The notes: generated by a model from the sequence alone, not told the origin. Shown: positions 8,547-56,960, counted from the stretch's first letter. The stretch: DNA of 64,000 nt from Terriglobia bacterium (GCA_965218085.1 CBDCKF010000002.1:3336288-3400287); one strand, 5' to 3'. Translations and numbers: made by a program.

Positions 8547-8824
8547 GCTAGTGGCCTGTACCACCCGAATCGGGAGCAGCGCCGATGGGTCTTGCCGGGG
8601 AGATCGAGGCGCGAGCCGGAAGTCGATGTCTTCACATCGACGACGGCTCGCAACAAAGATATCGTCGGCAACCCCCATCGGCCCAAAGGGTTCGGGCGTT
8701 ACGGCATTGTCTTCGTTGTCGTCGCCGCCTCGCAATGTAGGGCCCTTTACTCGTTGCCGACTCCTAAAATCCAACGCCGTTTGGCCCGAACCCTGCTCCC
8801 GATTCGGGTGTTACAGGCCACTAG
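8547..8824 (-). repeat. Structured MITE-like repeat, copy A (inverted relative to copies B and C)
   Basis: Bounded by CTAGTGGCCTGT... / ...ACAGGCCACTAG terminal inverted repeats. ~95% identical to the reverse complement of copy C. Confidence 0.8.
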
Positions 8825-28788: not shown

Positions 28789-29065
28789 TTAGTGGCCTGT
28801 AACAGAGGTATTGATAGCAGCGTTCGGAGCGCAACGGGATCGAATGCAAGGCGCGCCGCCCGAGGCAATGCTCTTTCATTCCGAGAAGGTGCAACGACGC
28901 AGACGGTCCCGTTGGGCCCGAACCCTTTGGGCCGATGGGGGTTGCCGGCGATCTCGTCGTTGCGAGCCGTCATCGATGTCAGAGCATCGATTTCCGTCTC
29001 GCGCCTCGAGCTCACCGGCAAGACCCATCGGCGCTGCTGTCAATACCTCTGTTACAGGCCACTAG
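28789..29065 (+). repeat. Structured MITE-like repeat, copy B
   Basis: 33-bp perfect terminal inverted repeat (TAGTGGCCTGTAACAGAGGTATTGATAGCAGCG...). Shares the ~140-bp conserved core with copies A and C. Confidence 0.8.
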
Positions 29066-29251: not shown

Positions 29252-29506
29252 ATGTCGAAGGCTGTGGAGAACCGTACGGTTGCAATTACCGAACATCGAT
29301 TCGAGAAAGAACTAATGTCGTTGATCGAGCCCCACGGCGCAAACGTTATCTCGTGTCCGTTATTAGAAGAGCGACCCGTTGAGAACCGCTCTGAGTTGCG
29401 AGCCTTCATCAGCCGTGGAATCGTCGAGCGGATTCTGCTTGCGTCGCCGAAGATGGCTCCACTCGCAGACGCGATAGCGGCCGATTTCGAACGGGCAGAC
29501 AGATGA
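29252..29506 (+). CDS. Uroporphyrinogen-III synthase (HemD)-like N-terminal fragment, 84 aa
   Basis: VAITEHRFEKELMSLIEPHGANVISCPLLEERPVE resembles the HemD N-terminus (VTRP...L...G..V...PLIEI.P). Its stop overlaps the cysG start (ATGA). Confidence 0.35.
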   Translation: MSKAVENRTVAITEHRFEKELMSLIEPHGANVISCPLLEERPVENRSELRAFISRGIVERILLASPKMAPLADAIAADFERADR

Positions 29507-30933
29507 AGTACTTCCCGATTTCACTGAGTGTAAAAGACCGGCGCGTGACGGTGATCGGCGGCGGCCATGTTGCCGAGGAACGGGTTCAGGCCCTCCTGGA
29601 GTGTAATGCGCGTGTGAGGGTAATCAGCCCTGAAGTGACGGAAACCCTTGAATCCCTCTCCGCTGCCGGCAAGATAGAATTGCATTTGCGCACCTATGAG
29701 TCTGGAGATCTCGCCGGCTCATGGGCGGTGCTGACAGCAACCGATGATCCAAGTGTCAACGAAGCCGCCTGGGGTGAATCGCGTGAGGGGAGAATCCCCA
29801 TCAATGTTACCGACGACCCGTCAAAATGCGATTTCATCATGCCCGCGCTTCTGCGGCGTGGAGATTTGACGATAGCGATTTCAACCGGGGGGGCGAGTCC
29901 GGCTTTAGCGGCCCGATTACGGCGACGCCTGTCGGCGATCGTGGGACCTGAATACGGGCGGCTTCTTGAGGTGCTGGGCAGGGTTCGATCACGCTTGAAA
30001 GACTCTGTGGCTGATGCTGACGAACGCAGGCGATTGCACTACCGGATTGTGGATTCGAACATCCTGCACCAGATCCTTGAATTGGACGTCGAGACCGTCG
30101 AATCCCGCATTGACTCAATCATCCGGGATGCGTCGACGGGTGTATCTCAGGCTTTAGGGTACGTGTATATCGTTGGCGCGGGACCCGGGGACCCCGGCCT
30201 GATCACATCACGTGGGCTGGACGCGCTTCGCATGGCTGATGTGGTCTTGCACGATCGCCTTATTGATATACGCCTGCTGGAGGAAGCACGTCCGGGAGCC
30301 GAGGTAATCGATGTCGGAAAGCGCGTGGGGGACCGCTCCCGAATGCAGGACTTTATTCAAGAAACATTGGTTGATCGGGCAAAGCGTGGCCAGACGGTCT
30401 GCCGCCTGAAAGGGGGCGATCCTTTCGTGTTCGGGCGGGGCGGTGAAGAAGCCCGCGCGCTGACGGAAGCGGACATTCCATTCGAAATCATTCCCGGCGT
30501 AACCAGCGCAATCGCTGCACCGGCGTCCGCCGGAATACCGGTCACCCACCGTGACACCGCCCATTCGTTCATGGTAATGACAGGTTCGCGAGCCGACGAC
30601 GCGAGTCCGGATGAGTGGGCCGGAGCCAGGAGTGTGATTGCCGGAGGCGGCACTGTCGTGGTGCTGATGGGCCTGTCGCGATTGACTGGCATCATTCGTC
30701 GGTTGAGCAAGGCCGGCTGTGGAGGGGAGACACCGGCCGCCGTGATATCCCGGGGAACATGGATTGAACAGGATGTTCGTGTAGGGACTTTGGAGAACAT
30801 TGAATCTCTATCGAAGGGAATCGTATCGCCCGCAGTAATCGTATTCGGAGTGACTGTCGGAGAGAGGGACCGGCTTGCCCAGATCCGTGCGGCGATGGCG
30901 GGGAAAAAGAATGAGCGTGATGGAACCTGCTAG
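29503..30933 (+). CDS. cysG: Siroheme synthase (precorrin-2 dehydrogenase/ferrochelatase + uroporphyrinogen-III C-methyltransferase)
   Basis: N-terminal VIGGGHVAEERV Rossmann fold. C-terminal VYIVGAGPGDPGLIT...GGDPFVFGRGGEE methyltransferase motifs. Confidence 0.9.
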   Translation: MKYFPISLSVKDRRVTVIGGGHVAEERVQALLECNARVRVISPEVTETLESLSAAGKIELHLRTYESGDLAGSWAVLTATDDPSVNEAAWGESREGRIPINVTDDPSKCDFIMPALLRRGDLTIAISTGGASPALAARLRRRLSAIVGPEYGRLLEVLGRVRSRLKDSVADADERRRLHYRIVDSNILHQILELDVETVESRIDSIIRDASTGVSQALGYVYIVGAGPGDPGLITSRGLDALRMADVVLHDRLIDIRLLEEARPGAEVIDVGKRVGDRSRMQDFIQETLVDRAKRGQTVCRLKGGDPFVFGRGGEEARALTEADIPFEIIPGVTSAIAAPASAGIPVTHRDTAHSFMVMTGSRADDASPDEWAGARSVIAGGGTVVVLMGLSRLTGIIRRLSKAGCGGETPAAVISRGTWIEQDVRVGTLENIESLSKGIVSPAVIVFGVTVGERDRLAQIRAAMAGKKNERDGTC

Positions 30934-31206
30934 TGGCCTGTAACACCCGAATCGGGAGCAGCGTTCGGGCCAAACGGCGTTGGATTTTAGGAGTCGGCAA
31001 CGAGAAAATGGCCCTACATTGCGAGGCGGCGACGACAACGAGGACAATGCCGTTTCGCCCGAACCCTTTGGGCCGATGGGGGTTGCCGACGATATCTTTG
31101 TTGCGAGCCGTCGTCGATGTGAAGACATCGACTTCCGTCTCGCGCCTCGATCTCCCCGGCAAGACCCATCGGCGCTGCTCCCGATTCGGGTGGTACAGGT
31201 CACTAG
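30932..31206 (+). repeat. Structured MITE-like repeat, copy C (its CTAG overlaps the cysG stop TAG)
   Basis: 34-bp terminal inverted repeat CTAGTGGCCTGTAACACCCGAATCGGGAGCAGCG / complement. Nested internal stems. Confidence 0.8.
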
Positions 31207-31482: not shown

Positions 31483-31764
31483 TTAGATCCGTCCTCCGGA
31501 AATAGCAGGGATAATCGAGACTTCCGCTCCAGCCGGAACCTTGGTCTGTAAATCATCCAGGAAGCGCACGTCTTCTCCATCGACGTAAACATTGAAGAAG
31601 CGCCGCAACTCCCCGTTATCCTCACAGAGCCGGGATTTCAGGCCCGGATACTTCTGGTCCAACTCATTCAGGATCTCTGAAATAGTGTCGGCCTGGACGT
31701 CAATTTCGGCGTCTTCTGCAGTGAATCGCCGAAGAGGTGTAGGAATGGTGACTCGAGTCGTCAT
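31483..31764 (-). CDS. MoaD/ThiS-family sulfur-carrier-like protein ending ...SGGRI
   Basis: 93 aa ubiquitin-like fold pattern with C-terminal AEVSIIPAISGG followed by two extra residues (RI). Confidence 0.7.
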   Translation of the reverse strand: MTTRVTIPTPLRRFTAEDAEIDVQADTISEILNELDQKYPGLKSRLCEDNGELRRFFNVYVDGEDVRFLDDLQTKVPAGAEVSIIPAISGGRI

Positions 31765-31802: not shown

Positions 31803-33041
31803 CTACGCAGTCATGCTGAGTTCGTTCACAGCGGCGTCGAATTCTCCCAGCTTGGCTTCAATTGTTTTGGGGGCTTGAAGGTTCAGCGCATCCTGTGTCT
31901 TTAAGCCGTTTCCAGTATTCGCAATAACGGTGAGGTCTTGCCGCTTGATCTTGCCTTGAGCCACGAGTTTTCGTGTGACGCCCAAAGCGACACCACCGGC
32001 AGTTTCGGCGTAGATGCCTTCCATTTCCGCCAGCAGCTGGATGTTTTCGACAATCTCTCGGTCGGTAACATCTTCGCCCCATCCGCCGGATTCCGTGATG
32101 ACTTCCACTGCATAGTACCCGTCGGCTGGCGATCCAATGGCTAGTGACTTGGCAATGGTCGATGGCTTGACGGGCCGAATATTGCGGGTGCCGTTCTTGA
32201 CTGCTGCCGTGATGGGATTGCAACCCGTCGCTTGAGCGCCGAAGATCTTCGTCCGAACGGGTTCATCGAGCAATCCGAGGCTTTCCAACTCTTTCATTCC
32301 GAGTTGCGTTTTCGTGATCAAGGATCCGCCGGCCATGGGTATAACGATTGCGTCCGGTGCACGCCACCCAAGTTGCTCGGCAATTTCGTATCCGAAAGAT
32401 TTCGATCCATCGCCGTAATAGGGGCGTAGGTTGACGTTGACGAATCCCCAGCCGTACCGGTCCGCGATCTGGCTGCACAGGCGGTTGACGTCGTCGTAGT
32501 TGCCGCGAACGGAAATAACGTGAGAACCGTAGACGGAAGTCGCGTTGACCTTTGCCGCTTCCAGGTTATCCGGAATCAATATCCAAGCCGGCAGTCCAGC
32601 TGCAGCCGCATTGGCGGCGACGGAATTTGCCAGGTTCCCCGTGGAGGCACACCCGACGGCCTGGAGACCAAACTCGAGGGCCTTGTTGATTGCGACAGCA
32701 GTTACGCGGTCTTTGAACGAAAGTGTCGGGAAGTTAACACTGTCATTCTTGACATAAAGCTCATCAATGCCGATAGCGCGGCCTAGGCGTTCTGCTCGAA
32801 CCAGAGGCGTGCCTCCTGTATCCAGTCCGATCTGGGGGTCATCGTCGATCGGGAGGAGTTCGCGATAACGCCAGATAGAGTTATTGCGCGAGCGGATGAC
32901 ATCACGAGTGAGCACCTTGGCGATAGCCTCGTAGTCGTATTCGACCTTGAGAGGGGCGAAGCATTCCTGACAACCGGCAATCGGGCGTTTCGGGTATTTA
33001 CGGCCGCATTCACGGCAGCTTAACCCTGTAACAAAACTCAT
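31803..33041 (-). CDS. thrC: Threonine-synthase-family PLP enzyme with N-terminal Cys4 zinc ribbon
   Basis: CRECG...CQEC ribbon. PLP-lysine motif SFKDR. Start set at MSFVTG, which has a GGAGGAGAG RBS. The ORF track extends further to 33119. Confidence 0.8.
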   Translation of the reverse strand: MSFVTGLSCRECGRKYPKRPIAGCQECFAPLKVEYDYEAIAKVLTRDVIRSRNNSIWRYRELLPIDDDPQIGLDTGGTPLVRAERLGRAIGIDELYVKNDSVNFPTLSFKDRVTAVAINKALEFGLQAVGCASTGNLANSVAANAAAAGLPAWILIPDNLEAAKVNATSVYGSHVISVRGNYDDVNRLCSQIADRYGWGFVNVNLRPYYGDGSKSFGYEIAEQLGWRAPDAIVIPMAGGSLITKTQLGMKELESLGLLDEPVRTKIFGAQATGCNPITAAVKNGTRNIRPVKPSTIAKSLAIGSPADGYYAVEVITESGGWGEDVTDREIVENIQLLAEMEGIYAETAGGVALGVTRKLVAQGKIKRQDLTVIANTGNGLKTQDALNLQAPKTIEAKLGEFDAAVNELSMTA

Positions 33042-33317
33042 GTTTTTCTCTCCTCGATCCGGCGCGACATTGGGTTGGCCCAAAAGAAAGGGTTGACCCA
33101 AAAAAGAACCCCGCGCCATACAGCGCGGGGTTCTTCCTGAAATCCTCCGGACTGTTTAGCACATCTTTTACGTGGAGCAATTTGTCTTAAATCGCCACGC
33201 TGCCCATACTACAAAAACCCTACGCCAAACGGGCGCAGGGCTTTGTGGGACACCTGAGCTGTTTAGCACATCTTTAACGTGGAGCAATTTGCGTAAATCA
33301 CCACGCTTAAAACCAGC
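33042..33317 (-). promoter_or_regulatory. Approx. 276-nt structured leader of the thrC-like operon (tandem ~52-nt repeats plus terminator); candidate attenuator/riboswitch
   Basis: Lies between the predicted TSS and the ATG. Two direct repeats (+33151-33200 and 33256-33305), each containing a CGUGG/CCACG stem. It ends in an intrinsic terminator. Confidence 0.5.
33100..33133 (-). terminator. Intrinsic terminator/attenuator hairpin GAACCCCGCGC-loop-GCGCGGGGTTC followed by a T-run, 59 nt upstream of the thrC-like ATG
   Basis: Perfect 11-bp GC-rich stem. TTTTTT follows on the transcribed strand. Confidence 0.7.
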
Positions 33318-33323
33318 CCAAAA

Positions 33324-33352
33324 ATCATAGCGCGGGGCATCTGCCGCGTCAA
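33324..33352 (-). promoter_or_regulatory. Sigma70-like promoter TTGACG-17-TATGAT driving the thrC-like leader
   Basis: On the minus strand, TTGACG and TATGAT lie 17 nt apart, directly downstream of the histidine kinase stop codon. Confidence 0.6.
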
Positions 33353-33380
33353 CTTTTGTTTTTGACGGATGCTATGACTG

Positions 33381-35327
33381 TTAGCGGCCTCCGGTAAGCT
33401 GGGGCCACATCTGCAAACTTGTCGGGAGGCTGACCGTTAAGGTTGTTCCTCGCCCCACCTCGCTTTCAACAGTTATCCGGCCGCTGTGTTTTTCGACGAT
33501 GTTGTAAGAGGCGATCAGTCCAAGGCTTGCCTTGACCCGGGATCCGGTCTTGCTGAACGTGGGATCGAACAATCGCGATAGCTGATCTTCAGGTATTCCG
33601 ACGCCCGTGTCGGAAAATTCGAGCTTCACGCGTCCACTCTCGGCGCGGGTTCGAATTGTAATAGTGCCCTCGCCGCGAATCGCCTGAGCAGCATTCGTAA
33701 GGAGGTTGAGGAACATCTGGTTGAGTTCACTTACATATGAAGGGACCAGAGGAAGGGCCCCGTATTCACGCACTACCTGGATTCGGTTTCCGATTCGAGT
33801 TTCAAGAAGCGTCAAAGTTGTTTCGATACCTTCATGGATGTCGATCGGTTCAAACACTGCACGGTCGATTCGAGTGAAGCTTTTCAGGCTTGTCACAAGT
33901 TTTCCAATCCTTTTGATTGCCAACTCTGTGACATGTTTGTTCTCTTCAAGACTCTCCAGTGCAGTCTGAAGGTTTCGATTTGCACGTATTTCTTCTGCCG
34001 TAGAACCGGTTTTCAATGCCATCTGGAGATCGGCCGTGCATTTCGAAACGAGGCCAACGGCGCTGTTGATTACGCCGACCGGCGTATTCAGCTCATGAAT
34101 GATTCCTGCAACGATCCCGCCCAATGCCGCCATTTTTTCCGCCTGTATCAGTTGAGTTTCCGCAGCCTTCAGTTCTGACAGGAGTTCTTCGAGCTGGGTG
34201 TTTTTCTCCTGAAGCTCGACGTTCTTCAGGCGGGCAATTTCAGCCGCATGCTCCGATTTCTCGACCTCAAATTCGATTTGAAGATTCTTGACTCGGGAAA
34301 CGGCTTCTTCGCCAGTGACCTCTTCTTTGATGCGGTGAAAGGTCCGATGGTGGTCCAAAGCCTTGTCCAGATTTCCGGCCAATTCGTATGCGAGAGAGAG
34401 CGCTTCGTGGCATTGGTAGACACGCGGTTTGGCTCTGACTTGCGTTGCTATTTCCAGCGCGTCGCTCAGAGTGTCGATTGCCAGGGCAGCGTCGAGTTCT
34501 TTTATTGCGAGGTGTCCGAGGTTGAGCAGGCTGGTGCTTTCGGCCTGGCGATAGCCCATGCGGCGGCGGATTTCCAGACTTTGTTGATGAAGATCTCGTG
34601 CCCTCTCATAATCATCGACGTTCTGGTAGATCGCTCCGAGATCGTTCAACGCCCGTGCTTCGCCCATGAGATTGCTTTGAGATTGGAAAATGTCCAGTGC
34701 GCGTTGGTGGTAGTCAGCTGCTTCTTCATAGTCGCCGAGCGTCTGATAGATGGTACCGATGCCGCTCAAAGTCCGCGCCTCGCCAATCGGGTTTTCCATA
34801 TCTCTGAACATCTTCATGGCCCGATTTTCGTATTCCAGTGCGCGCTCGTAGTCTCCCAATTCGTGATAGCCGGCTCCGATCCCGTGGACCGTCCAGGCCT
34901 CCTCGCTTTGGTTTCCCGATTCTTTGAATAACTTCAGTGCCTTGAAAGCATTAGCCAGGGCTCGATCGTATTCGCCCATGCTGAGATCTACCTGTGCCAG
35001 AGCGGCCAGGTTTCTTCCGCGGCCCTCGGGATCTGTCAGAGCGTCAAAGAGTGACAGGGAATCCCTAAGGATCGGCAGAGCGGCGTCGTGATTGGACAGA
35101 ACCATCTCAGCGAGGCCGATTGACAGTGTGCCGTAAGCAATTCCTAAGTCGTAGTCGAGGCGGCGCGCGATTTCGAGGGCACGACGGGAAATGTCCAACG
35201 CCCGCTTCGGTTCGTTGGCCCCTACCTTGCGTGCGAGCCTGACCATGAGATCCACCGTCTCCGGTGTCTCGTTTCCGCTTGAGTCGAAGGCCGCAACTCT
35301 GTCTTCAAGTTCCTGAATGTCGCTCAT
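33381..35327 (-). CDS. TPR-repeat sensor histidine kinase (HisKA + HATPase_c)
   Basis: Multiple TPR-like repeats in the N-terminal half. H-box region and ATPase motifs (NLLTNAAQAI, DTGVGI, GLGL) in the C-terminal half. Confidence 0.8.
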   Translation of the reverse strand: MSDIQELEDRVAAFDSSGNETPETVDLMVRLARKVGANEPKRALDISRRALEIARRLDYDLGIAYGTLSIGLAEMVLSNHDAALPILRDSLSLFDALTDPEGRGRNLAALAQVDLSMGEYDRALANAFKALKLFKESGNQSEEAWTVHGIGAGYHELGDYERALEYENRAMKMFRDMENPIGEARTLSGIGTIYQTLGDYEEAADYHQRALDIFQSQSNLMGEARALNDLGAIYQNVDDYERARDLHQQSLEIRRRMGYRQAESTSLLNLGHLAIKELDAALAIDTLSDALEIATQVRAKPRVYQCHEALSLAYELAGNLDKALDHHRTFHRIKEEVTGEEAVSRVKNLQIEFEVEKSEHAAEIARLKNVELQEKNTQLEELLSELKAAETQLIQAEKMAALGGIVAGIIHELNTPVGVINSAVGLVSKCTADLQMALKTGSTAEEIRANRNLQTALESLEENKHVTELAIKRIGKLVTSLKSFTRIDRAVFEPIDIHEGIETTLTLLETRIGNRIQVVREYGALPLVPSYVSELNQMFLNLLTNAAQAIRGEGTITIRTRAESGRVKLEFSDTGVGIPEDQLSRLFDPTFSKTGSRVKASLGLIASYNIVEKHSGRITVESEVGRGTTLTVSLPTSLQMWPQLTGGR

Positions 35328-35843: not shown

Positions 35844-37170
35844 TCAGTAGTGTCCCAACGTTAGTTGAATAGATTCAGTTGTTTGGAGTTCTCCGAGTCT
35901 GAATCTTGATAGTCGAGGGCGGAAAGGGCCTTTAAAAGGGGCGTTTTTTCGAAAACGGTGACGCTGACGATCTGGAGAATTCGGTAGAGACTGGCGTTGA
36001 CATTGAGCCGTTTTTTCACGATGGCAACAAGCAAATAGACCGAGATGGCGGTCCAGATTTGAGTCTTCAGCGCATTGGGGGTTGTGCCGTAGAACGCCTT
36101 GATGCGTAGGTGCTGTTTGATCCACTTGAAGAACAGTTCGACCTGCCAGCGGCAGCGATAGAGTTGGGCAATGGTCGCCGCTGGCAGCGCGAAATTGTTG
36201 GTCAGGAAGACGAGGTACTTGTTGTGCTCTCGATCGAGAAAGCGAATGCGGCGGAGTTTTTCTGGATAGCGCTTGCGAGAGTAAAAGCCGCGTAGGCTGA
36301 TGATCTGATCGCTGAGGACTCCGGTGGACTTGTCCACATCGAGTGAATAAAGACGATTGAAGACGAAATTCTTTTTCGCGCGTGTCACGAAGAACGCCGC
36401 CGCGACACTGATTTTGTACAGGCGCCGGAAATCCAGATAACCGCGATCCATGATGTAGAAGGCTCCGGGCTCGAAGGCGAGTTGATCCAGAAGATGGAGG
36501 TCGTGAACTTTGCCGTGTGTAATCAGGATAAAGGAAGGAATATTGCCGCGCAGATCCAGAACCGTGTGCAGTTTGACAGCTCCCTTGTGCTTGCGGAAGC
36601 GTGCCCACGGGAACAGGGAAAGACACAGATCGATCGTTGTGGCATCGAGTGCGTAAACCGTCTGCTTGAGGTCGACACCGAAACTGTCGCCAACATAGAG
36701 CTCGCGAGCCATGGAGATCAGCGTCTGGGCGAAGTCGGCATAGATACGCCAATCGCGCACCTGATTCGCATTCGCAAGGGTGTTGCGGGAGACGCGGCTG
36801 CGAATGCCCATGTGATAAAGCTTCGTGCCAGCCGAACGCAGACAGGCTTCGATATCGCGCAGACTCTCCCGGTAGGTCAATTGCGCGAACGCCATGCACA
36901 GAAACTGATCCCAGCAGGAAAAACGTTGGAGTTTGTAGTTGCCACGGTAGCGATCGACGCATCGACGAAAGTCTTGACGGGGAAGAAAGTCCATCAGCTG
37001 AGAGAAGATCGTCTTGCCGGAATTCATAGGCCGCCTCCTGCCGCAAAGTCGCGGAAGGATGCCGCCAGTACGCAATCAAATTCAAATCGATTTTGGCTCT
37101 CAGCCGATCTAACATGACCATTCTCAATAACCTATGGGCGACGCCCATCTAAACGTTGGGACACTACTGA
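35844..37170 (-). mobile_element. IS4-family insertion sequence (1327 bp) nested in the left inverted repeat of the IS256-family element, with a 7-bp target duplication CCTTCGA
   Basis: Perfect ~19-bp inverted repeat TCAGTAGTGTCCCAACGTT / AACGTTGGGACACTACTGA. CCTTCGA is present at 35837-35843 and 37171-37177. Confidence 0.75.
35861..37027 (-). CDS. IS4-family DDE transposase (DUF4372-type N-terminus)
   Basis: MNSGKTIFSQLMDFLP N-terminus. C-terminal YRCRWQVELFFKWIKQHLRIK is typical of IS4-family DDE_Tnp_1. Confidence 0.8.
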   Translation of the reverse strand: MNSGKTIFSQLMDFLPRQDFRRCVDRYRGNYKLQRFSCWDQFLCMAFAQLTYRESLRDIEACLRSAGTKLYHMGIRSRVSRNTLANANQVRDWRIYADFAQTLISMARELYVGDSFGVDLKQTVYALDATTIDLCLSLFPWARFRKHKGAVKLHTVLDLRGNIPSFILITHGKVHDLHLLDQLAFEPGAFYIMDRGYLDFRRLYKISVAAAFFVTRAKKNFVFNRLYSLDVDKSTGVLSDQIISLRGFYSRKRYPEKLRRIRFLDREHNKYLVFLTNNFALPAATIAQLYRCRWQVELFFKWIKQHLRIKAFYGTTPNALKTQIWTAISVYLLVAIVKKRLNVNASLYRILQIVSVTVFEKTPLLKALSALDYQDSDSENSKQLNLFN

Positions 37171-37196: not shown

Positions 37197-38477
37197 TTAA
37201 GCCACCTTTGACGGATCGTCGCCAGTGACCAGGTCGTTGAGTTTGGCCTGGAGCATCCAGAGATCCTTATATCCCAGAATTCTGCGGAAGTTTTTCTCGG
37301 TATCGAGGAAGGAGGCCGCCGCCCATCGCAGGGCCATGTCGGCATTCTTCCATCGGCCCACACGACGGGTCCGGATACGCATCCCGGAGTGCGAACTGTC
37401 GATGAGGTTCGTCGACCCCAGACAACGGCGAAGAGCCGGAGACAGTTCGAGACGGTTGATGGTGAACATTTCGTCGAGTCCTTCCTTGAGACTGGCCGCA
37501 GCATCCGGATGCTGAGACCGCAACCATTCGGCTTGCTTTCGGATCCGGGCGATGCCTTCCTTCCACGGCAAGCGGAACGCGGCTTTCATGACGGAAACGA
37601 CCTGCGGAGCCAATTCGTCGGGGAGCTTCGCCGCGACGTTCCGGATCTTGTGGTTGCGGCATCGCTGGACCGGATTCTGACGGCCAAAGACCTTGTCGAT
37701 CGCGCTCCGCAGCGCTTTTGCGCCGTCAATGACGAACAGGTACCGCCGACCTGGATCGATGCCCCGGTCGACGAGATCCTCCAGCAGCGTGACCGCCGTG
37801 GCCGCGTTCTCGCTCGCGCCGTCCTTTATTCCCAGGACGACCTTCTCGCCGCTGGAATCCACGCCCACGGCGCAAAGCACGTGAAATTCTCCGAAGATCA
37901 CGCCGTCCAGATAGATCACCAGGAACTCCCGGTCCTCGAACCGGCGTTCGCTCAGCCGCTTCAACTCCTTCCCGCTCTGCTCAACGAATTCCCGGCTCAC
38001 CGACGACTTGCTGACACCGACCGTGTCGGCCATCTGGGGAATGACCCGTTCGTATTGCCGGGTCGAGACGTTCGACATCAGGATCTCCAGAACCCGGCTG
38101 CCGATCGTCCCGTTCGCGTTGATCGCCTCGTAGGCCGGGATCTCGACCTCCTGGCCTTTACCCCGCCCCTTCTTCCGAAGTCGGGGCTTTCGGACTCGCA
38201 GCTTGCGATCCGACAGCCGCACGCTGCCAGCCTGCCTGCCGTGCCAACGAATCGACTCCTTCGCCCGGCCCCGCTGCTTCTCTCCGGCCACACCCTGCGC
38301 CGACAACTGCAACACGGCCTCGATACTGGCACGTCCCAACACGTCGATCAACTCGTCGATCGCCATCCGCGACCCTTCGATCAGCTCGACCATCGGCAGC
38401 AGAATCTGCCCGTTCTCTGTCAAATATTCCGCCAACGACTGGCTGTCGTCGCGGCTCACGATTCGGTATGCTTTCAT
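37197..38477 (-). CDS. IS256-family (mutator-type) transposase
   Basis: Conserved blocks VIYLDGVIFG, CAVGVDSSGEKVVLG, LFVIDGAKALRSAI and QRCRNHKIRNV. Confidence 0.85.
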   Translation of the reverse strand: MKAYRIVSRDDSQSLAEYLTENGQILLPMVELIEGSRMAIDELIDVLGRASIEAVLQLSAQGVAGEKQRGRAKESIRWHGRQAGSVRLSDRKLRVRKPRLRKKGRGKGQEVEIPAYEAINANGTIGSRVLEILMSNVSTRQYERVIPQMADTVGVSKSSVSREFVEQSGKELKRLSERRFEDREFLVIYLDGVIFGEFHVLCAVGVDSSGEKVVLGIKDGASENAATAVTLLEDLVDRGIDPGRRYLFVIDGAKALRSAIDKVFGRQNPVQRCRNHKIRNVAAKLPDELAPQVVSVMKAAFRLPWKEGIARIRKQAEWLRSQHPDAAASLKEGLDEMFTINRLELSPALRRCLGSTNLIDSSHSGMRIRTRRVGRWKNADMALRWAAASFLDTEKNFRRILGYKDLWMLQAKLNDLVTGDDPSKVA

Positions 38478-54739: not shown

Positions 54740-56960
54740 CTGCGCACCCGCTTCAGATTCTTAGGAGTCATTCGAGGAAAGCGCTTAGGTCGGGTCTGAG
54801 AGGTGAGCGAAAGATTGAGAGGCCTGACTGCGTTTGGTTCTCAATCCCGGTAGGAGGTGAGATCGCTCGCACCCCCTCCGGACAGAACGGCTCGTACCGG
54901 CCAGGTAAGCCGCTCCTCGATCAGCGAGTAAACTCCAGTTTAAGATTCCGCTCCGTGTAGTCATGGAGAAAGACAAGTCCGTGGCGGCGGAACCACTCCA
55001 GACTTAGGACGAAGCGAACTTCCCGTCGCAGGACGGATTGCCACGCACTCATCCGCATCCAGGTGCGGTGGGCGTAATACATCGGTGCCCCAGCTCGAAT
55101 CATCATCCGTTGGAACTTGGCCGGCTTCTTCCATTTCTTTAACTGCATGGAACGGAGTCGGCTTCGGATGAATGCATCCAGCTCTTGGAATATCTTACGG
55201 AACTCCTGGATGCGATTGTACCCGACCCAGCCTGCAAGATATTCGTTGAGACCGGCAATCACCTGGGACATCGATTGCCCGTTATTCCGCCGTGTCCGGG
55301 ATCGGACCTCTTGCACAAAGCGCTTGCGCGCCCGTGTACTGACCCGAATCTGGCCCCGCAGGATCTGGAATCCGACAAACTCCACATCCTTCATCGGCGC
55401 CACCCGGCTCTTGTCCCGGTTGACGTGCAATCCGAGTTCATCTTCGAGGAGTCGAGTTATGCTCTCCATCACCCGTCGAGCTGCCCGCTCGGTCTTTAAC
55501 AGGATGACGAAGTCATCGGCCCACCGGCTGAACCGGTGGCCCCGCCGCTCCAGTTCCTGGTCGAGCTCGTTGAGCACGATGTTGGATAGGATCGGCGAGA
55601 CCGGGGAGCCCTGTGGACATCCCTTGTCCGTCTTCTCGACGACACCCTCTACTTCAACTCCCGCCTTCAGCGCCCGCGCCACCATCGTCACGAGCCGCTC
55701 ATCCTGGATCTTCCGTCGAATGAGCTTCAGGATCAGGTTGTGAGGAATCTCGTCGAAGAAGCTCTCAATGTCCAGCGATGCACACCACTCGTAGCCTTCC
55801 ACCACCGCTTTCCGTGCATGGCGGATGGCCTGGTGTTGGCTCTTCCCAGGTCGAAACCCGAAGCTGGACCGGCTAAAGTCACCTTCAAAGATCTCCGTCA
55901 ACACTGTGTGGAGACTTTGACTGACTACGCGATCCATGACCACGGGTATACCCAACTTCCTCTTCTTCGGACTGCCCGGCTTGGGGATCAGGACCCGCCT
56001 TGCGGGCTTGAAACGGTATGTCCCGGCTTCCAGCTTTGCCTGAATTCGTGCGAGAAGCTCGTCTTCTCTCTCCTGGAAAGCGTCCACCGACATGTTGTCT
56101 ACTCCGGCTGAACCGGCGTTGGCCCGAACCTGCTGCCATGCCCGGTAGAGTCGCCCCGGGTTGTAGACCCGTTCCATGGCTCCAACAACTTTCACTTCAC
56201 TTTCTCCGTGACTCTCTACCGCCAGGAATGGCCGGGGATGGTTGGTATTGGCGCCGGGCCCGGACTGCTGCTAACCTCGCCGGGCCTCCGGTTCGGTGCT
56301 CGCGCGGAGCTCGCTGCCCCCATCGGTTTGCTAGGCCCTAAATCCACCCACTGAATCGACTTCCTGATGGTGTCACTCTCGCCTCTCGTCCATGACTTCC
56401 CACCGCCGGATAGCGATCTCCGGTGGCCCGGGTCTTCCCGGTCGTCAGGGTTTTCTCCTCCGCTCTGTTACCAGGCTTCATCGGCCCTGAGTCTTCAGTA
56501 CTACCCATGGATCTGCCACCCTCTGCTTCCTCCCCGCTCCGGGGTCGCCGTTCGCGGTTTGGTTTTCAATACCGGGTCTCGGCGGACTGGATAACCCAAT
56601 GTCCTTTGAGCGTCTGGGTGGACGCACCCACCGTGGGTCCCGATATCGAAGCAATAGGGCTTCCCGGGGTAAGACACGCAACCCCCTCGTATACCGTCCG
56701 GCTTCAGCTCCCTTCGGTGACTACGGTCGGATATCGGGACTCGCTCTCTTACGCCTGCTCGTCCCCCTCCGGGCACCCATCTAGCCGGTTCGCTGTTCGC
56801 TACGTACACGAGTTCTGCCTCATGCTTCTTCCGGACGCCCCATCTCTGAGACTGCCCTTGCCTTGTTGGTGTTCGCCTTCCGTCCGATCACGGTGGCTTT
56901 CCTTCCTTCAGTTGGCGTGCCATGCCCGGCACACATCAGGTACCGCCCGCTGAGCGGGCG
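54740..56960 (-). mobile_element. Group II intron (boundaries approximate); 5' end either GTGCG at 56630 or GTGTG at ~56928 after tandem terminator-like hairpins
   Basis: An RT/maturase ORF with ~0.45-1 kb of non-coding flanks on both sides. Two perfect hairpins (GGCCCCC-cgag-GGGGGCC at 56970-56986 and ACCGCCCGC-tgag-GCGGGCGGT at 56943-56963) lie just upstream on the intron strand. Confidence 0.4.
54921..56195 (-). CDS. Group II intron reverse transcriptase/maturase (no endonuclease domain)
   Basis: RT domains 0-7 (SAGVDNMSVDAF, RRVLIPKPGSPKKRKLGIPVVMDRVV, FGFRPGKSQHQAI, RWADDFVILL) plus maturase X motif (YLAGWVGYN). 424 aa. Confidence 0.85.
   Translation of the reverse strand: MKVVGAMERVYNPGRLYRAWQQVRANAGSAGVDNMSVDAFQEREDELLARIQAKLEAGTYRFKPARRVLIPKPGSPKKRKLGIPVVMDRVVSQSLHTVLTEIFEGDFSRSSFGFRPGKSQHQAIRHARKAVVEGYEWCASLDIESFFDEIPHNLILKLIRRKIQDERLVTMVARALKAGVEVEGVVEKTDKGCPQGSPVSPILSNIVLNELDQELERRGHRFSRWADDFVILLKTERAARRVMESITRLLEDELGLHVNRDKSRVAPMKDVEFVGFQILRGQIRVSTRARKRFVQEVRSRTRRNNGQSMSQVIAGLNEYLAGWVGYNRIQEFRKIFQELDAFIRSRLRSMQLKKWKKPAKFQRMMIRAGAPMYYAHRTWMRMSAWQSVLRREVRFVLSLEWFRRHGLVFLHDYTERNLKLEFTR

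Follow-up and report, generated by a model that had tools for sequence, protein, structure and literature searches.

The SAM-II riboswitches (Rfam SAM_alpha, RF00521), described originally as the metA motif (PMC1273637) and known structurally from the metX RNA 2QWY (as presented in PMC3303485), sense S-adenosylmethionine (SAM) with a single stem, P1, a pseudoknot, P2, a GAUUU triple-helix strand and a ligand site made of UUGC and GC[U]AAA. Their P1 is preceded at a few nucleotides (nt) by a promoter, a terminator separates their P2 from the open reading frame (ORF), and the gene downstream serves methionine or SAM metabolism; their reported hosts are Alpha-, Beta- and Gammaproteobacteria and Bacteroidetes (PMC1273637, PMC2258182). 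These features of fold and layout, including the register of the P2a and P2b helices, recur in a leader on the minus strand of a 64,000-nt stretch of DNA from a Terriglobia bacterium (GCA_965218085.1 CBDCKF010000002.1:3336288-3400287), which we call the window and whose host, judging by the closest loci, belongs to the Acidobacteriota. We give a probability of about 0.88 to the reading that this leader consists of two complete SAM-II-class riboswitches, placed in series behind one promoter and ahead of a metM-like/metO-like operon.

Tandem SAM-II riboswitches have been described before; 44 examples with two aptamers per leader are on record (Sherlock et al. 2022, PMC9481103), some with an intrinsic terminator of its own for each aptamer, and these have been interpreted as OFF switches that act pseudo-cooperatively. 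The leader described here has the same arrangement, namely two aptamers and two terminators behind a single promoter-like site. The known tandem that contains a SAM-V aptamer also has two SAM-sensing pseudoknots in series, the first of which controls a terminator; its second aptamer, however, is a SAM-V that acts on the ribosome-binding site (RBS), whereas both aptamers here are of the SAM-II type and both would act on terminators. The SAM-II riboswitch of Sinorhizobium meliloti metZ shares with our leader the order of aptamer and Rho-independent terminator, and its terminated small RNA (sRNA), RZ, accumulates at high SAM; it differs in being a single unit, in an alphaproteobacterium, with metZ (O-succinylhomoserine sulfhydrylase) as its target (PMC9373788). 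The SAM-II class and tandem SAM-II pairs are already known, and this leader is an ordinary example of them.

An initial annotation of the window had pointed to two direct repeats of about 52 nt in this leader, for which it recognised no known riboswitch class. The repeats are there as described (AGCGUGG...GCUAAACAG, at 33307-33259 and 33201-33152, with starts 106-107 nt apart and 45 of 50 aligned positions shared, or 90% identity), but their class can be named. In a permissive scan of positions 32900-33500 (601 nt), Rfam SAM_alpha matches both repeats over the full model (28.3 bits, E = 2e-4, and 27.0 bits, E = 5e-4), with the family core CGUGG-GAUUU...CCACGUUAAA...GCUAAA-AG contained in the alignment. 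The same interval holds no match at E <= 10 to SAM-V (RF01826), T-box, SAM/SAH or other riboswitch families, and none of these classes is found at the gathering threshold across the whole 64-kb window. A default-threshold Rfam scan of the window is silent at the leader because both copies lie under the 36-bit gathering score. Compared with the class as a whole, the window copies have a shorter central loop and a middle part of P2 that is not Watson-Crick paired, as well as scores of 27-28 bits where 36 are required, and their Acidobacteriota clade has its own invariant CUCCAC and its own flanks.

The distribution of the element places these low scores in context. Loci encoding relatives of gene 1 of the operon were sampled from genomes (80 loci) and metagenomes (80 loci), and a covariance model, R1, was built from 57 distinct copies of the element. 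R1 finds the two leader copies and no others in the window; among the relatives it finds 14 copies in seven Acidobacteriota genome loci, and in 31 metagenome loci a further 55 complete copies and a contig-end partial, with all 71 copies scoring 62-78 bits, and it finds no copies in the more distant loci of the sampled set. The closest loci (Acidobacteriota, Blastocatellia and Terriglobia metagenome-assembled genomes) carry the element upstream of the ortholog, with proteins that are ~65-80% identical, and ~25 of the ~38 orthologous leaders are tandem while ~13 have a single unit. The orthologous copies that were run against the SAM-II model of Rfam span 22.6 to 41.3 bits; five of 43 pass the gathering score (L007, 37.5; L116, 41.3; L115, 40.7; L110, 39.4; L112, 39.4). 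Judged by these scores, the window copies sit within a single series of homologs whose upper end counts as SAM-II by the definition of Rfam. In the orthologous leaders, whose comparison the initial annotation had proposed, the element is present in ~38 independent Acidobacteriota loci, and its helices P1 and P2a covary.

As read from the alignment, the conserved fold is an H-type pseudoknot, in which a U-run would be the triple-helix strand and UUGC would pair with GCUAAA. P1 would form between GCGUGG and CCACGU; GAUUU, the U-rich 5' part of the loop, would sit in the groove of P2; P2 would join the 3' part of the loop (GRC...UUGC) to the tail (GCUAAAC-AG-GYC); and SAM would be held at the UUGC/GC[U]AA junction. 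The alignment comprises the 57 distinct copies, and its paired cells were counted against those obtained when the partners were slid by 1-3 columns. Standard pairs fill 91-95% of cells in the proposed register and 22-44% in the slid ones. The six pairs of P1 (columns 3-8 with 30-35) are 93.6% paired, and pair 4/34, for example, is CG in 50 copies, AU in six and GU in one, with no mispairs. P2a (columns 18-20 with 55-57) is 91% paired with GC, AU and GU exchanges on both sides; its variants include GGC/GCC, AGC/GCU, GAC/GUC and CAAC/GUUG, and at pairs 18/57 and 19/56 the copies have GC, AU or GU. The GAC/GUC of aptamer 2 is itself a compensatory variant of the commonest of these, GGC/GCC. P2b (columns 24-27 with 47, 48, 50 and 51) is 100% paired and invariant. 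The covariation score lies above those of all 500 of 500 shuffles.

The residues that contact the ligand in the crystal structure are also conserved. In 2QWY, P1 includes G3-C29, C4-G28 and G5-C27, U10-U12 of L1 lie in the groove of P2b, and the P2b pairs include U21-A45 and U20-A46; the adenine of SAM is stacked between U21 and G22 and paired with the unpaired U44, and the sulfonium contacts the carbonyls of U11 and U21 (PMC3303485). Residues U10-U12, U20, U21, G22, C23, G42, C43, U44, A45 and A46 of 2QWY fall on columns 12-14, 24-27 and 47-51 of our alignment and are invariant in all 57 copies, as are the whole blocks GAUUU (columns 10-14), UUGC (columns 24-27) and GC[U]AA (columns 47-51), including those of both window copies. 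This mapping runs through what we take to be the metX sequence, and it matches the structure paper at each of the 16 residues whose identity is given there. Additionally, the alignment reproduces the one-nt offset in register between P2b and P2a that arises from the unpaired U44. A sequence-only hidden Markov model of the clade gave no nhmmer match to the same presumed metX SAM-II sequence; the P1 and P2a sequences differ between the two, which makes this result uninformative. From the conserved pocket we infer that both modules bind SAM.

Several structural features of the initial annotation look different in light of this fold. Its 7-base-pair stem AGCGUGG/CCACGUU holds for repeat 1, which has seven pairs including one G-U; repeat 2 has six, and its outermost position is an A-A. 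The AUUU/AAAU inner helix and the AUG-UGC-UAA mini-ORF do occur in both repeats, but the helix can form in 17 of the 57 homologous copies and is not part of the conserved fold, and the mini-ORF is present in 20; we rejected both as functional features, and they come about as a side effect of conservation in the GAUUU and GCUAAA blocks. We also discarded the idea that GG...UUGC within the repeat is a sigma-54 promoter, as the spacing proved wrong on direct reading. The L3 segment of unit 2 (33161-33169, AAAGAUGUGC; columns 38-46) is of the unit-1 type in the window and in L001 and L087, and in all other lineages the L3 of unit 2 is AAAAAAC-UGC. This pattern points to partial gene conversion involving units 1 and 2 in the sublineage of the window, L001 and L087.

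Each aptamer is followed by a terminator. The second had been described in the initial annotation as a perfect GC hairpin with a U-run ahead of the RBS and ATG, and this description stands: its arms, found by inverted-repeat search, are 13 nt long and 100% complementary with a 6-nt loop (-26.3 kcal/mol), and its U-run ends at 33100, with the ATG at 33041 lying 59 nt further downstream. The first terminator, which had been overlooked, lies between the repeats and has an energy of -19.1 kcal/mol in a hairpin search, and with it the leader becomes two complete units of aptamer plus terminator. A tandem riboswitch, with two structured modules and their terminators ahead of a biosynthetic operon, had been one of the readings offered initially, and it is the one that is borne out. 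A consensus terminator scan listed neither hairpin, both stems extending into the U-run so that too few unpaired U remain; this miss is a limit of the scan and not evidence against the terminators. Across the homologs, a hairpin and U-run follow within 12-36 nt of 56 of the 57 copies. The sole copy without a canonical terminator is unit 2 of the closest genome relative (L001:2846-2905), which may use another expression platform, such as translational control.

How would such units switch? When SAM is bound, P2 would keep the tail, the GC-rich hairpin and its U-run would form, and RNA polymerase would terminate. When SAM is scarce, the tail (the 3' strand of P2a and the next ~10 nt) would pair with the 5' half of the terminator, giving an antiterminator and read-through. 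Operon expression would then need the polymerase to pass both terminators, and, by extension from the published tandems, this requirement would repress the operon more tightly, and make its response to SAM steeper ('pseudo-cooperative'), than a single switch could. When transcripts truncated before the 3' half of the terminator are folded, 36 of 56 units, both window units among them, pair the 5' half of the terminator with the linker and the 3' strand of P2a. The linkers also track their own terminators (CGAGG/CCUCG, GCGGG/CCUGC, CAGG/CCUG and UAGG/CCUA), pairing better with these than with the terminators of other units in a permutation comparison.

A number of observations weigh against the reading as tandem SAM-II switches and deserve to be set out together. 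Both window copies score below the Rfam gathering score (28.3 and 27.0 versus 36 bits). Within aptamer 1, P2a has two of three Watson-Crick pairs, with C33293 and U33257 mismatched. Eight of the 13 P1, P2a and P2b pairs (four of six in P1, four of four in P2b) are invariant and hence uninformative, and the homolog set is a narrow clade, which limits covariation. As for the switching mechanism, the antiterminator is predicted for some units (36 of 56) but not for the rest; its duplex has a mean of -9 kcal/mol and a mean z of -0.68 against mononucleotide-shuffled linkers; and the minimum-energy folds of full-length units always combine P1 with the terminator and never contain the antiterminator, so that switching would have to be kinetic. 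With weak support from shuffling, and a permutation p of ~0.01 in favour of pairing with the own terminator, we infer antiterminators from the folding models and keep them as candidates.

The position of the promoter bears on whether both aptamers are transcribed. The promoter given in the initial annotation, TTGACG-17-TATGAT, is present as stated, matches 10 of 12 consensus positions in a consensus scan and is the sole sigma-70-like site in 32500-34000. P1 of aptamer 1 begins 17 nt past the end of its -10 box, and transcription would start near 33317, ~10 nt ahead of that stem. Among 40 distinct orthologous leaders, 32 have a TTGACN-17/18-TAnnnT site 14-25 nt 5' of the first aptamer, and the position of the promoter relative to P1 agrees with that in the original SAM-II description (PMC1273637). 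Together, the promoter position in the orthologs and this agreement argue that transcription starts 5' of both aptamers.

The spacer of this promoter has a feature of its own. A GC-rich palindrome, CGCGGCAGAUGCCCCGCG, occupies the interval between the -35 and -10 boxes (33331-33348, minus strand), 33 nt past the stop codon (33381) of the upstream TPR-histidine-kinase gene, and L001 and L087, the closest relatives, have comparable GC palindromes between the boxes of their promoters. The window palindrome could be an operator, or else a terminator of the upstream gene that overlaps the promoter. Two transposase ORFs on the minus strand (35861-37075 and 37197-38477; DDE_Tnp_1/DUF4372 and Transposase_mut) lie directly 5' of the histidine-kinase gene. 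At the other end of the leader, between terminator 2 and the RBS, the 14-nt motif UUUUGGG(U/C)CAACCC occurs twice on the minus strand (33072-33085 and 33090-33103).

The genes downstream speak to the physiological role of the switch. The 412-residue protein read from the ATG at 33041 (P0001) has a 100% identical match and thousands of homologs, and gene 2 begins 38 nt past gene 1 on the same strand. Although annotation pipelines call gene 1 a threonine synthase, its product is probably a MetM-type homocysteine synthase, and gene 2 probably encodes MetO. According to PMC12172450 (citing Hasebe et al.), in Streptomyces the ThrC-like MetM and the sulfur carrier MetO turn O-phosphohomoserine into homocysteine, and the metM of S. 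albulus has a SAM riboswitch. The window likewise has adjoining PALP and ThiS genes on one strand with a SAM riboswitch upstream. In addition, SAM-I (S-box, RF00162) matches of 82-98 bits lie within ~250 nt upstream of orthologs at six loci (L008, L010, L012, L015, L016 and L033), from Deltaproteobacteria, Planctomycetota and others. These S-boxes share with our leader the orthologous gene, the position, the inferred ligand and the OFF logic, and differ in being a four-way junction where the window aptamers are an H-type pseudoknot. At another locus, L003, a third aptamer copy with its own terminator (L003:6832-6890) lies ~2.6 kb downstream of the metM-like gene and directly precedes a gene with an N-terminal homocysteine S-methyltransferase domain, as in MetH. 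Given the SAM-I riboswitches of other phyla, the L003 copy and the Streptomyces MetM/MetO system, the operon is most likely one of the methionine pathway and not of threonine synthesis. Its extent varies among relatives: in L004, L007, L110 and L115 the aptamers lie 900-1250 nt upstream of the metM-like gene with another gene in between (in L007 a 256-residue ORF that looks, by eye from its translation, like a short-chain dehydrogenase), so that the regulated operon is larger there.

Table 1. Coordinates of the leader and operon features in the window (P, paired element; L, loop)
Feature	Position	Strand	Details
Sigma-70-type promoter	33324..33352	-	-35 TTGACG 33352-33347; 17-nt spacer; -10 TATGAT 33329-33324
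SAM-II aptamer 1	33257..33307	-	Rfam SAM_alpha 28.3 bits; model R1 69.9 bits
Aptamer 1, P1	33307-33301 with 33282-33276	-	L1 GAUUU 33299-33295
Aptamer 1, P2a	33293-33291 with 33259-33257	-	5' CGC, 3' GCU
Aptamer 1, P2b	33287-33284 with 33267-33263	-	5' UUGC, 3' GC[U]AA
Candidate antiterminator partner, unit 1	33259-33253	-	GCUCAGG, overlaps P2a 3' strand; truncated-transcript fold
Intrinsic terminator 1	33213..33242	-	CCCUGCGCC 33240-33232; loop CGUUU; GGCGUAGGG 33226-33218; U5 33217-33213
SAM-II aptamer 2	33150..33201	-	Rfam SAM_alpha 27.0 bits; model R1 74.5 bits
Aptamer 2, P1	33200-33195 with 33175-33170	-	L1 GAUUU 33193-33189
Aptamer 2, P2a	33186-33184 with 33152-33150	-	5' GAC, 3' GUC
Aptamer 2, P2b	33180-33177 with 33160-33156	-	5' UUGC, 3' GC[U]AA
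Candidate antiterminator partner, unit 2	33155-33144	-	ACAGU-C-CGG-A-GG; truncated-transcript fold
Intrinsic terminator 2	33100..33135	-	arms AAGAACCCCGCGC 33135-33123 and GCGCGGGGUUCUU 33116-33104; loop UGUAUG; U-run to 33100
RBS and start codon	33039..33055	-	GAGGAG 33055-33050; ATG 33041-33039; read from sequence
Gene 1, ThrC-fold pyridoxal phosphate enzyme	31803..33041	-	412 aa; Cys-rich N-terminal segment; Pfam PALP E = 8e-65; NCBIfam thrC TIGR00260 265 bits
Gene 2, ThiS/MoaD-family sulfur carrier	31483..31764	-	93 aa, ends GG-RI; Pfam ThiS E = 5e-15; NCBIfam SAMP1/MoaD

Other explanations of the leader can be weighed against the same evidence. What if this SAM-II-like fold senses another ligand in this Acidobacteriota subgroup, be it S-adenosylhomocysteine (SAH), methionine, homocysteine or some other sulfur metabolite, and is a functionally new variant? 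The sub-threshold scores of the window copies would fit such a divergence, as would a mid-P2 region that lacks a Watson-Crick pair of the U18-A48 type found in the crystallised RNA (columns 22/53 and 23/52 are A-C or A-A) and the clade-specific invariant UUGCUCCAC together with a recurrent GGAGG in the linker. We nonetheless consider a change of ligand quite improbable, as every nucleotide reported to contact SAM is invariant, the U-U carbonyl site that meets the sulfonium among them (PMC3303485), orthologous genes of other phyla are under SAM-I, and the scores of the homologous copies against the SAM-II model run in a continuum to 41 bits. It is improbable as well that the main product of the locus is a pair of trans-acting sRNAs, of ~105 and ~215 nt and ending at terminators 1 and 2, with operon control secondary. 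A strong terminator does end each unit, and in S. meliloti the SAM-II-terminated sRNAs RZ and RA1/RA2 accumulate and a role in trans has been proposed for them (PMC9373788); that role is unproven even there, however, no trans target is known, and the element is seen only in sense and immediately 5' of genes of the metM type or for homocysteine methyltransferase. Moreover, action in trans would add to the riboswitch function and not replace it. A related idea, less improbable though still unlikely in our view, is that the two units are non-redundant and tuned to different SAM levels, forming a two-threshold switch, with the ~105- and ~215-nt terminated RNAs perhaps serving as trans-acting, SAM-dependent sRNAs in Acidobacteriota. 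Different tuning is conceivable because unit 1 has a weakened P2a (the C-U mismatch) and a weaker terminator (-19 versus -26 kcal/mol).

The initial annotation had also entertained a ligand- or tRNA-responsive attenuator, and a leader-peptide or T-box attenuator of a threonine or cysteine operon would suit a terminator that lies directly 5' of a gene annotated as 'threonine synthase', an AUG-UGC-UAA mini-ORF in each repeat and weak Rfam matches to Thr_leader (29.8 bits) and Leu_leader (28.7 bits). Those two alignments, however, cover the terminator hairpin only and fall far under the gathering scores of 55 and 50; the sole ORF is two codons long and there is no conserved leader peptide; Rfam scans of the leader and of the window give no T-box match; and the nucleotides that are conserved are those of the SAM-II core. 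Because the mini-ORF is not conserved, we regard the attenuator as already refuted and assign it next to no weight. Equally negligible is the probability that the repeats are a duplicated element without regulatory function (repetitive extragenic palindromic, miniature inverted-repeat transposable element-like or a recent local duplication). Their 90% identity and close spacing might be so explained, and the window does hold an unrelated dispersed repeat, but the leader element occurs just twice in 64 kb, its tandem layout has been kept upstream of orthologs whose proteins are only 66-80% identical, and first and second units are distinct, lineage-stable sequence types whose helices show compensatory changes. 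Two SAM-II-class riboswitches in series remain our preferred reading.

The dispersed repeat just mentioned is ~150-170 nt long and has three copies in the window with 83-90% identity, two direct (28894-29065 and 31035-31206) and one inverted (8548-8697). The two direct copies flank a siroheme-synthase-like gene (29503-30933), spurious ORFs across the repeat give similar peptides, and the repeat has no Rfam match at the gathering threshold. Elsewhere in the window, on the minus strand at 56674-56852, Rfam matches group II intron D1-D4 (RF02001) with 64.1 bits.

The value of these observations is chiefly one of annotation, and the known mechanisms of riboswitches are unchanged by them. A literature search for SAM-II in Acidobacteria found no report, the papers that name both being concerned, by their titles and abstracts, with other RNA motifs, and the presence of SAM-II in an Acidobacteriota clade is phylogenetically somewhat unexpected; it is also systematically under-scored by the Rfam model. 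At the gathering score Rfam misses these riboswitches, with neither window copy among the few that pass, and with most copies under that score SAM-II is under-counted in Acidobacteriota, an abundant soil phylum. Additionally, as a natural tandem SAM-II with a terminator for each unit, the leader is a clean case in which to test pseudo-cooperative control. Finally, control by SAM, through SAM-II here and SAM-I in other phyla, is regulatory evidence on the function of a gene that NCBIfam names thrC; it accords with the MetM/MetO route, which was described recently, and suggests broad use of that route among Acidobacteriota, Planctomycetota, Nitrospirota and other groups.

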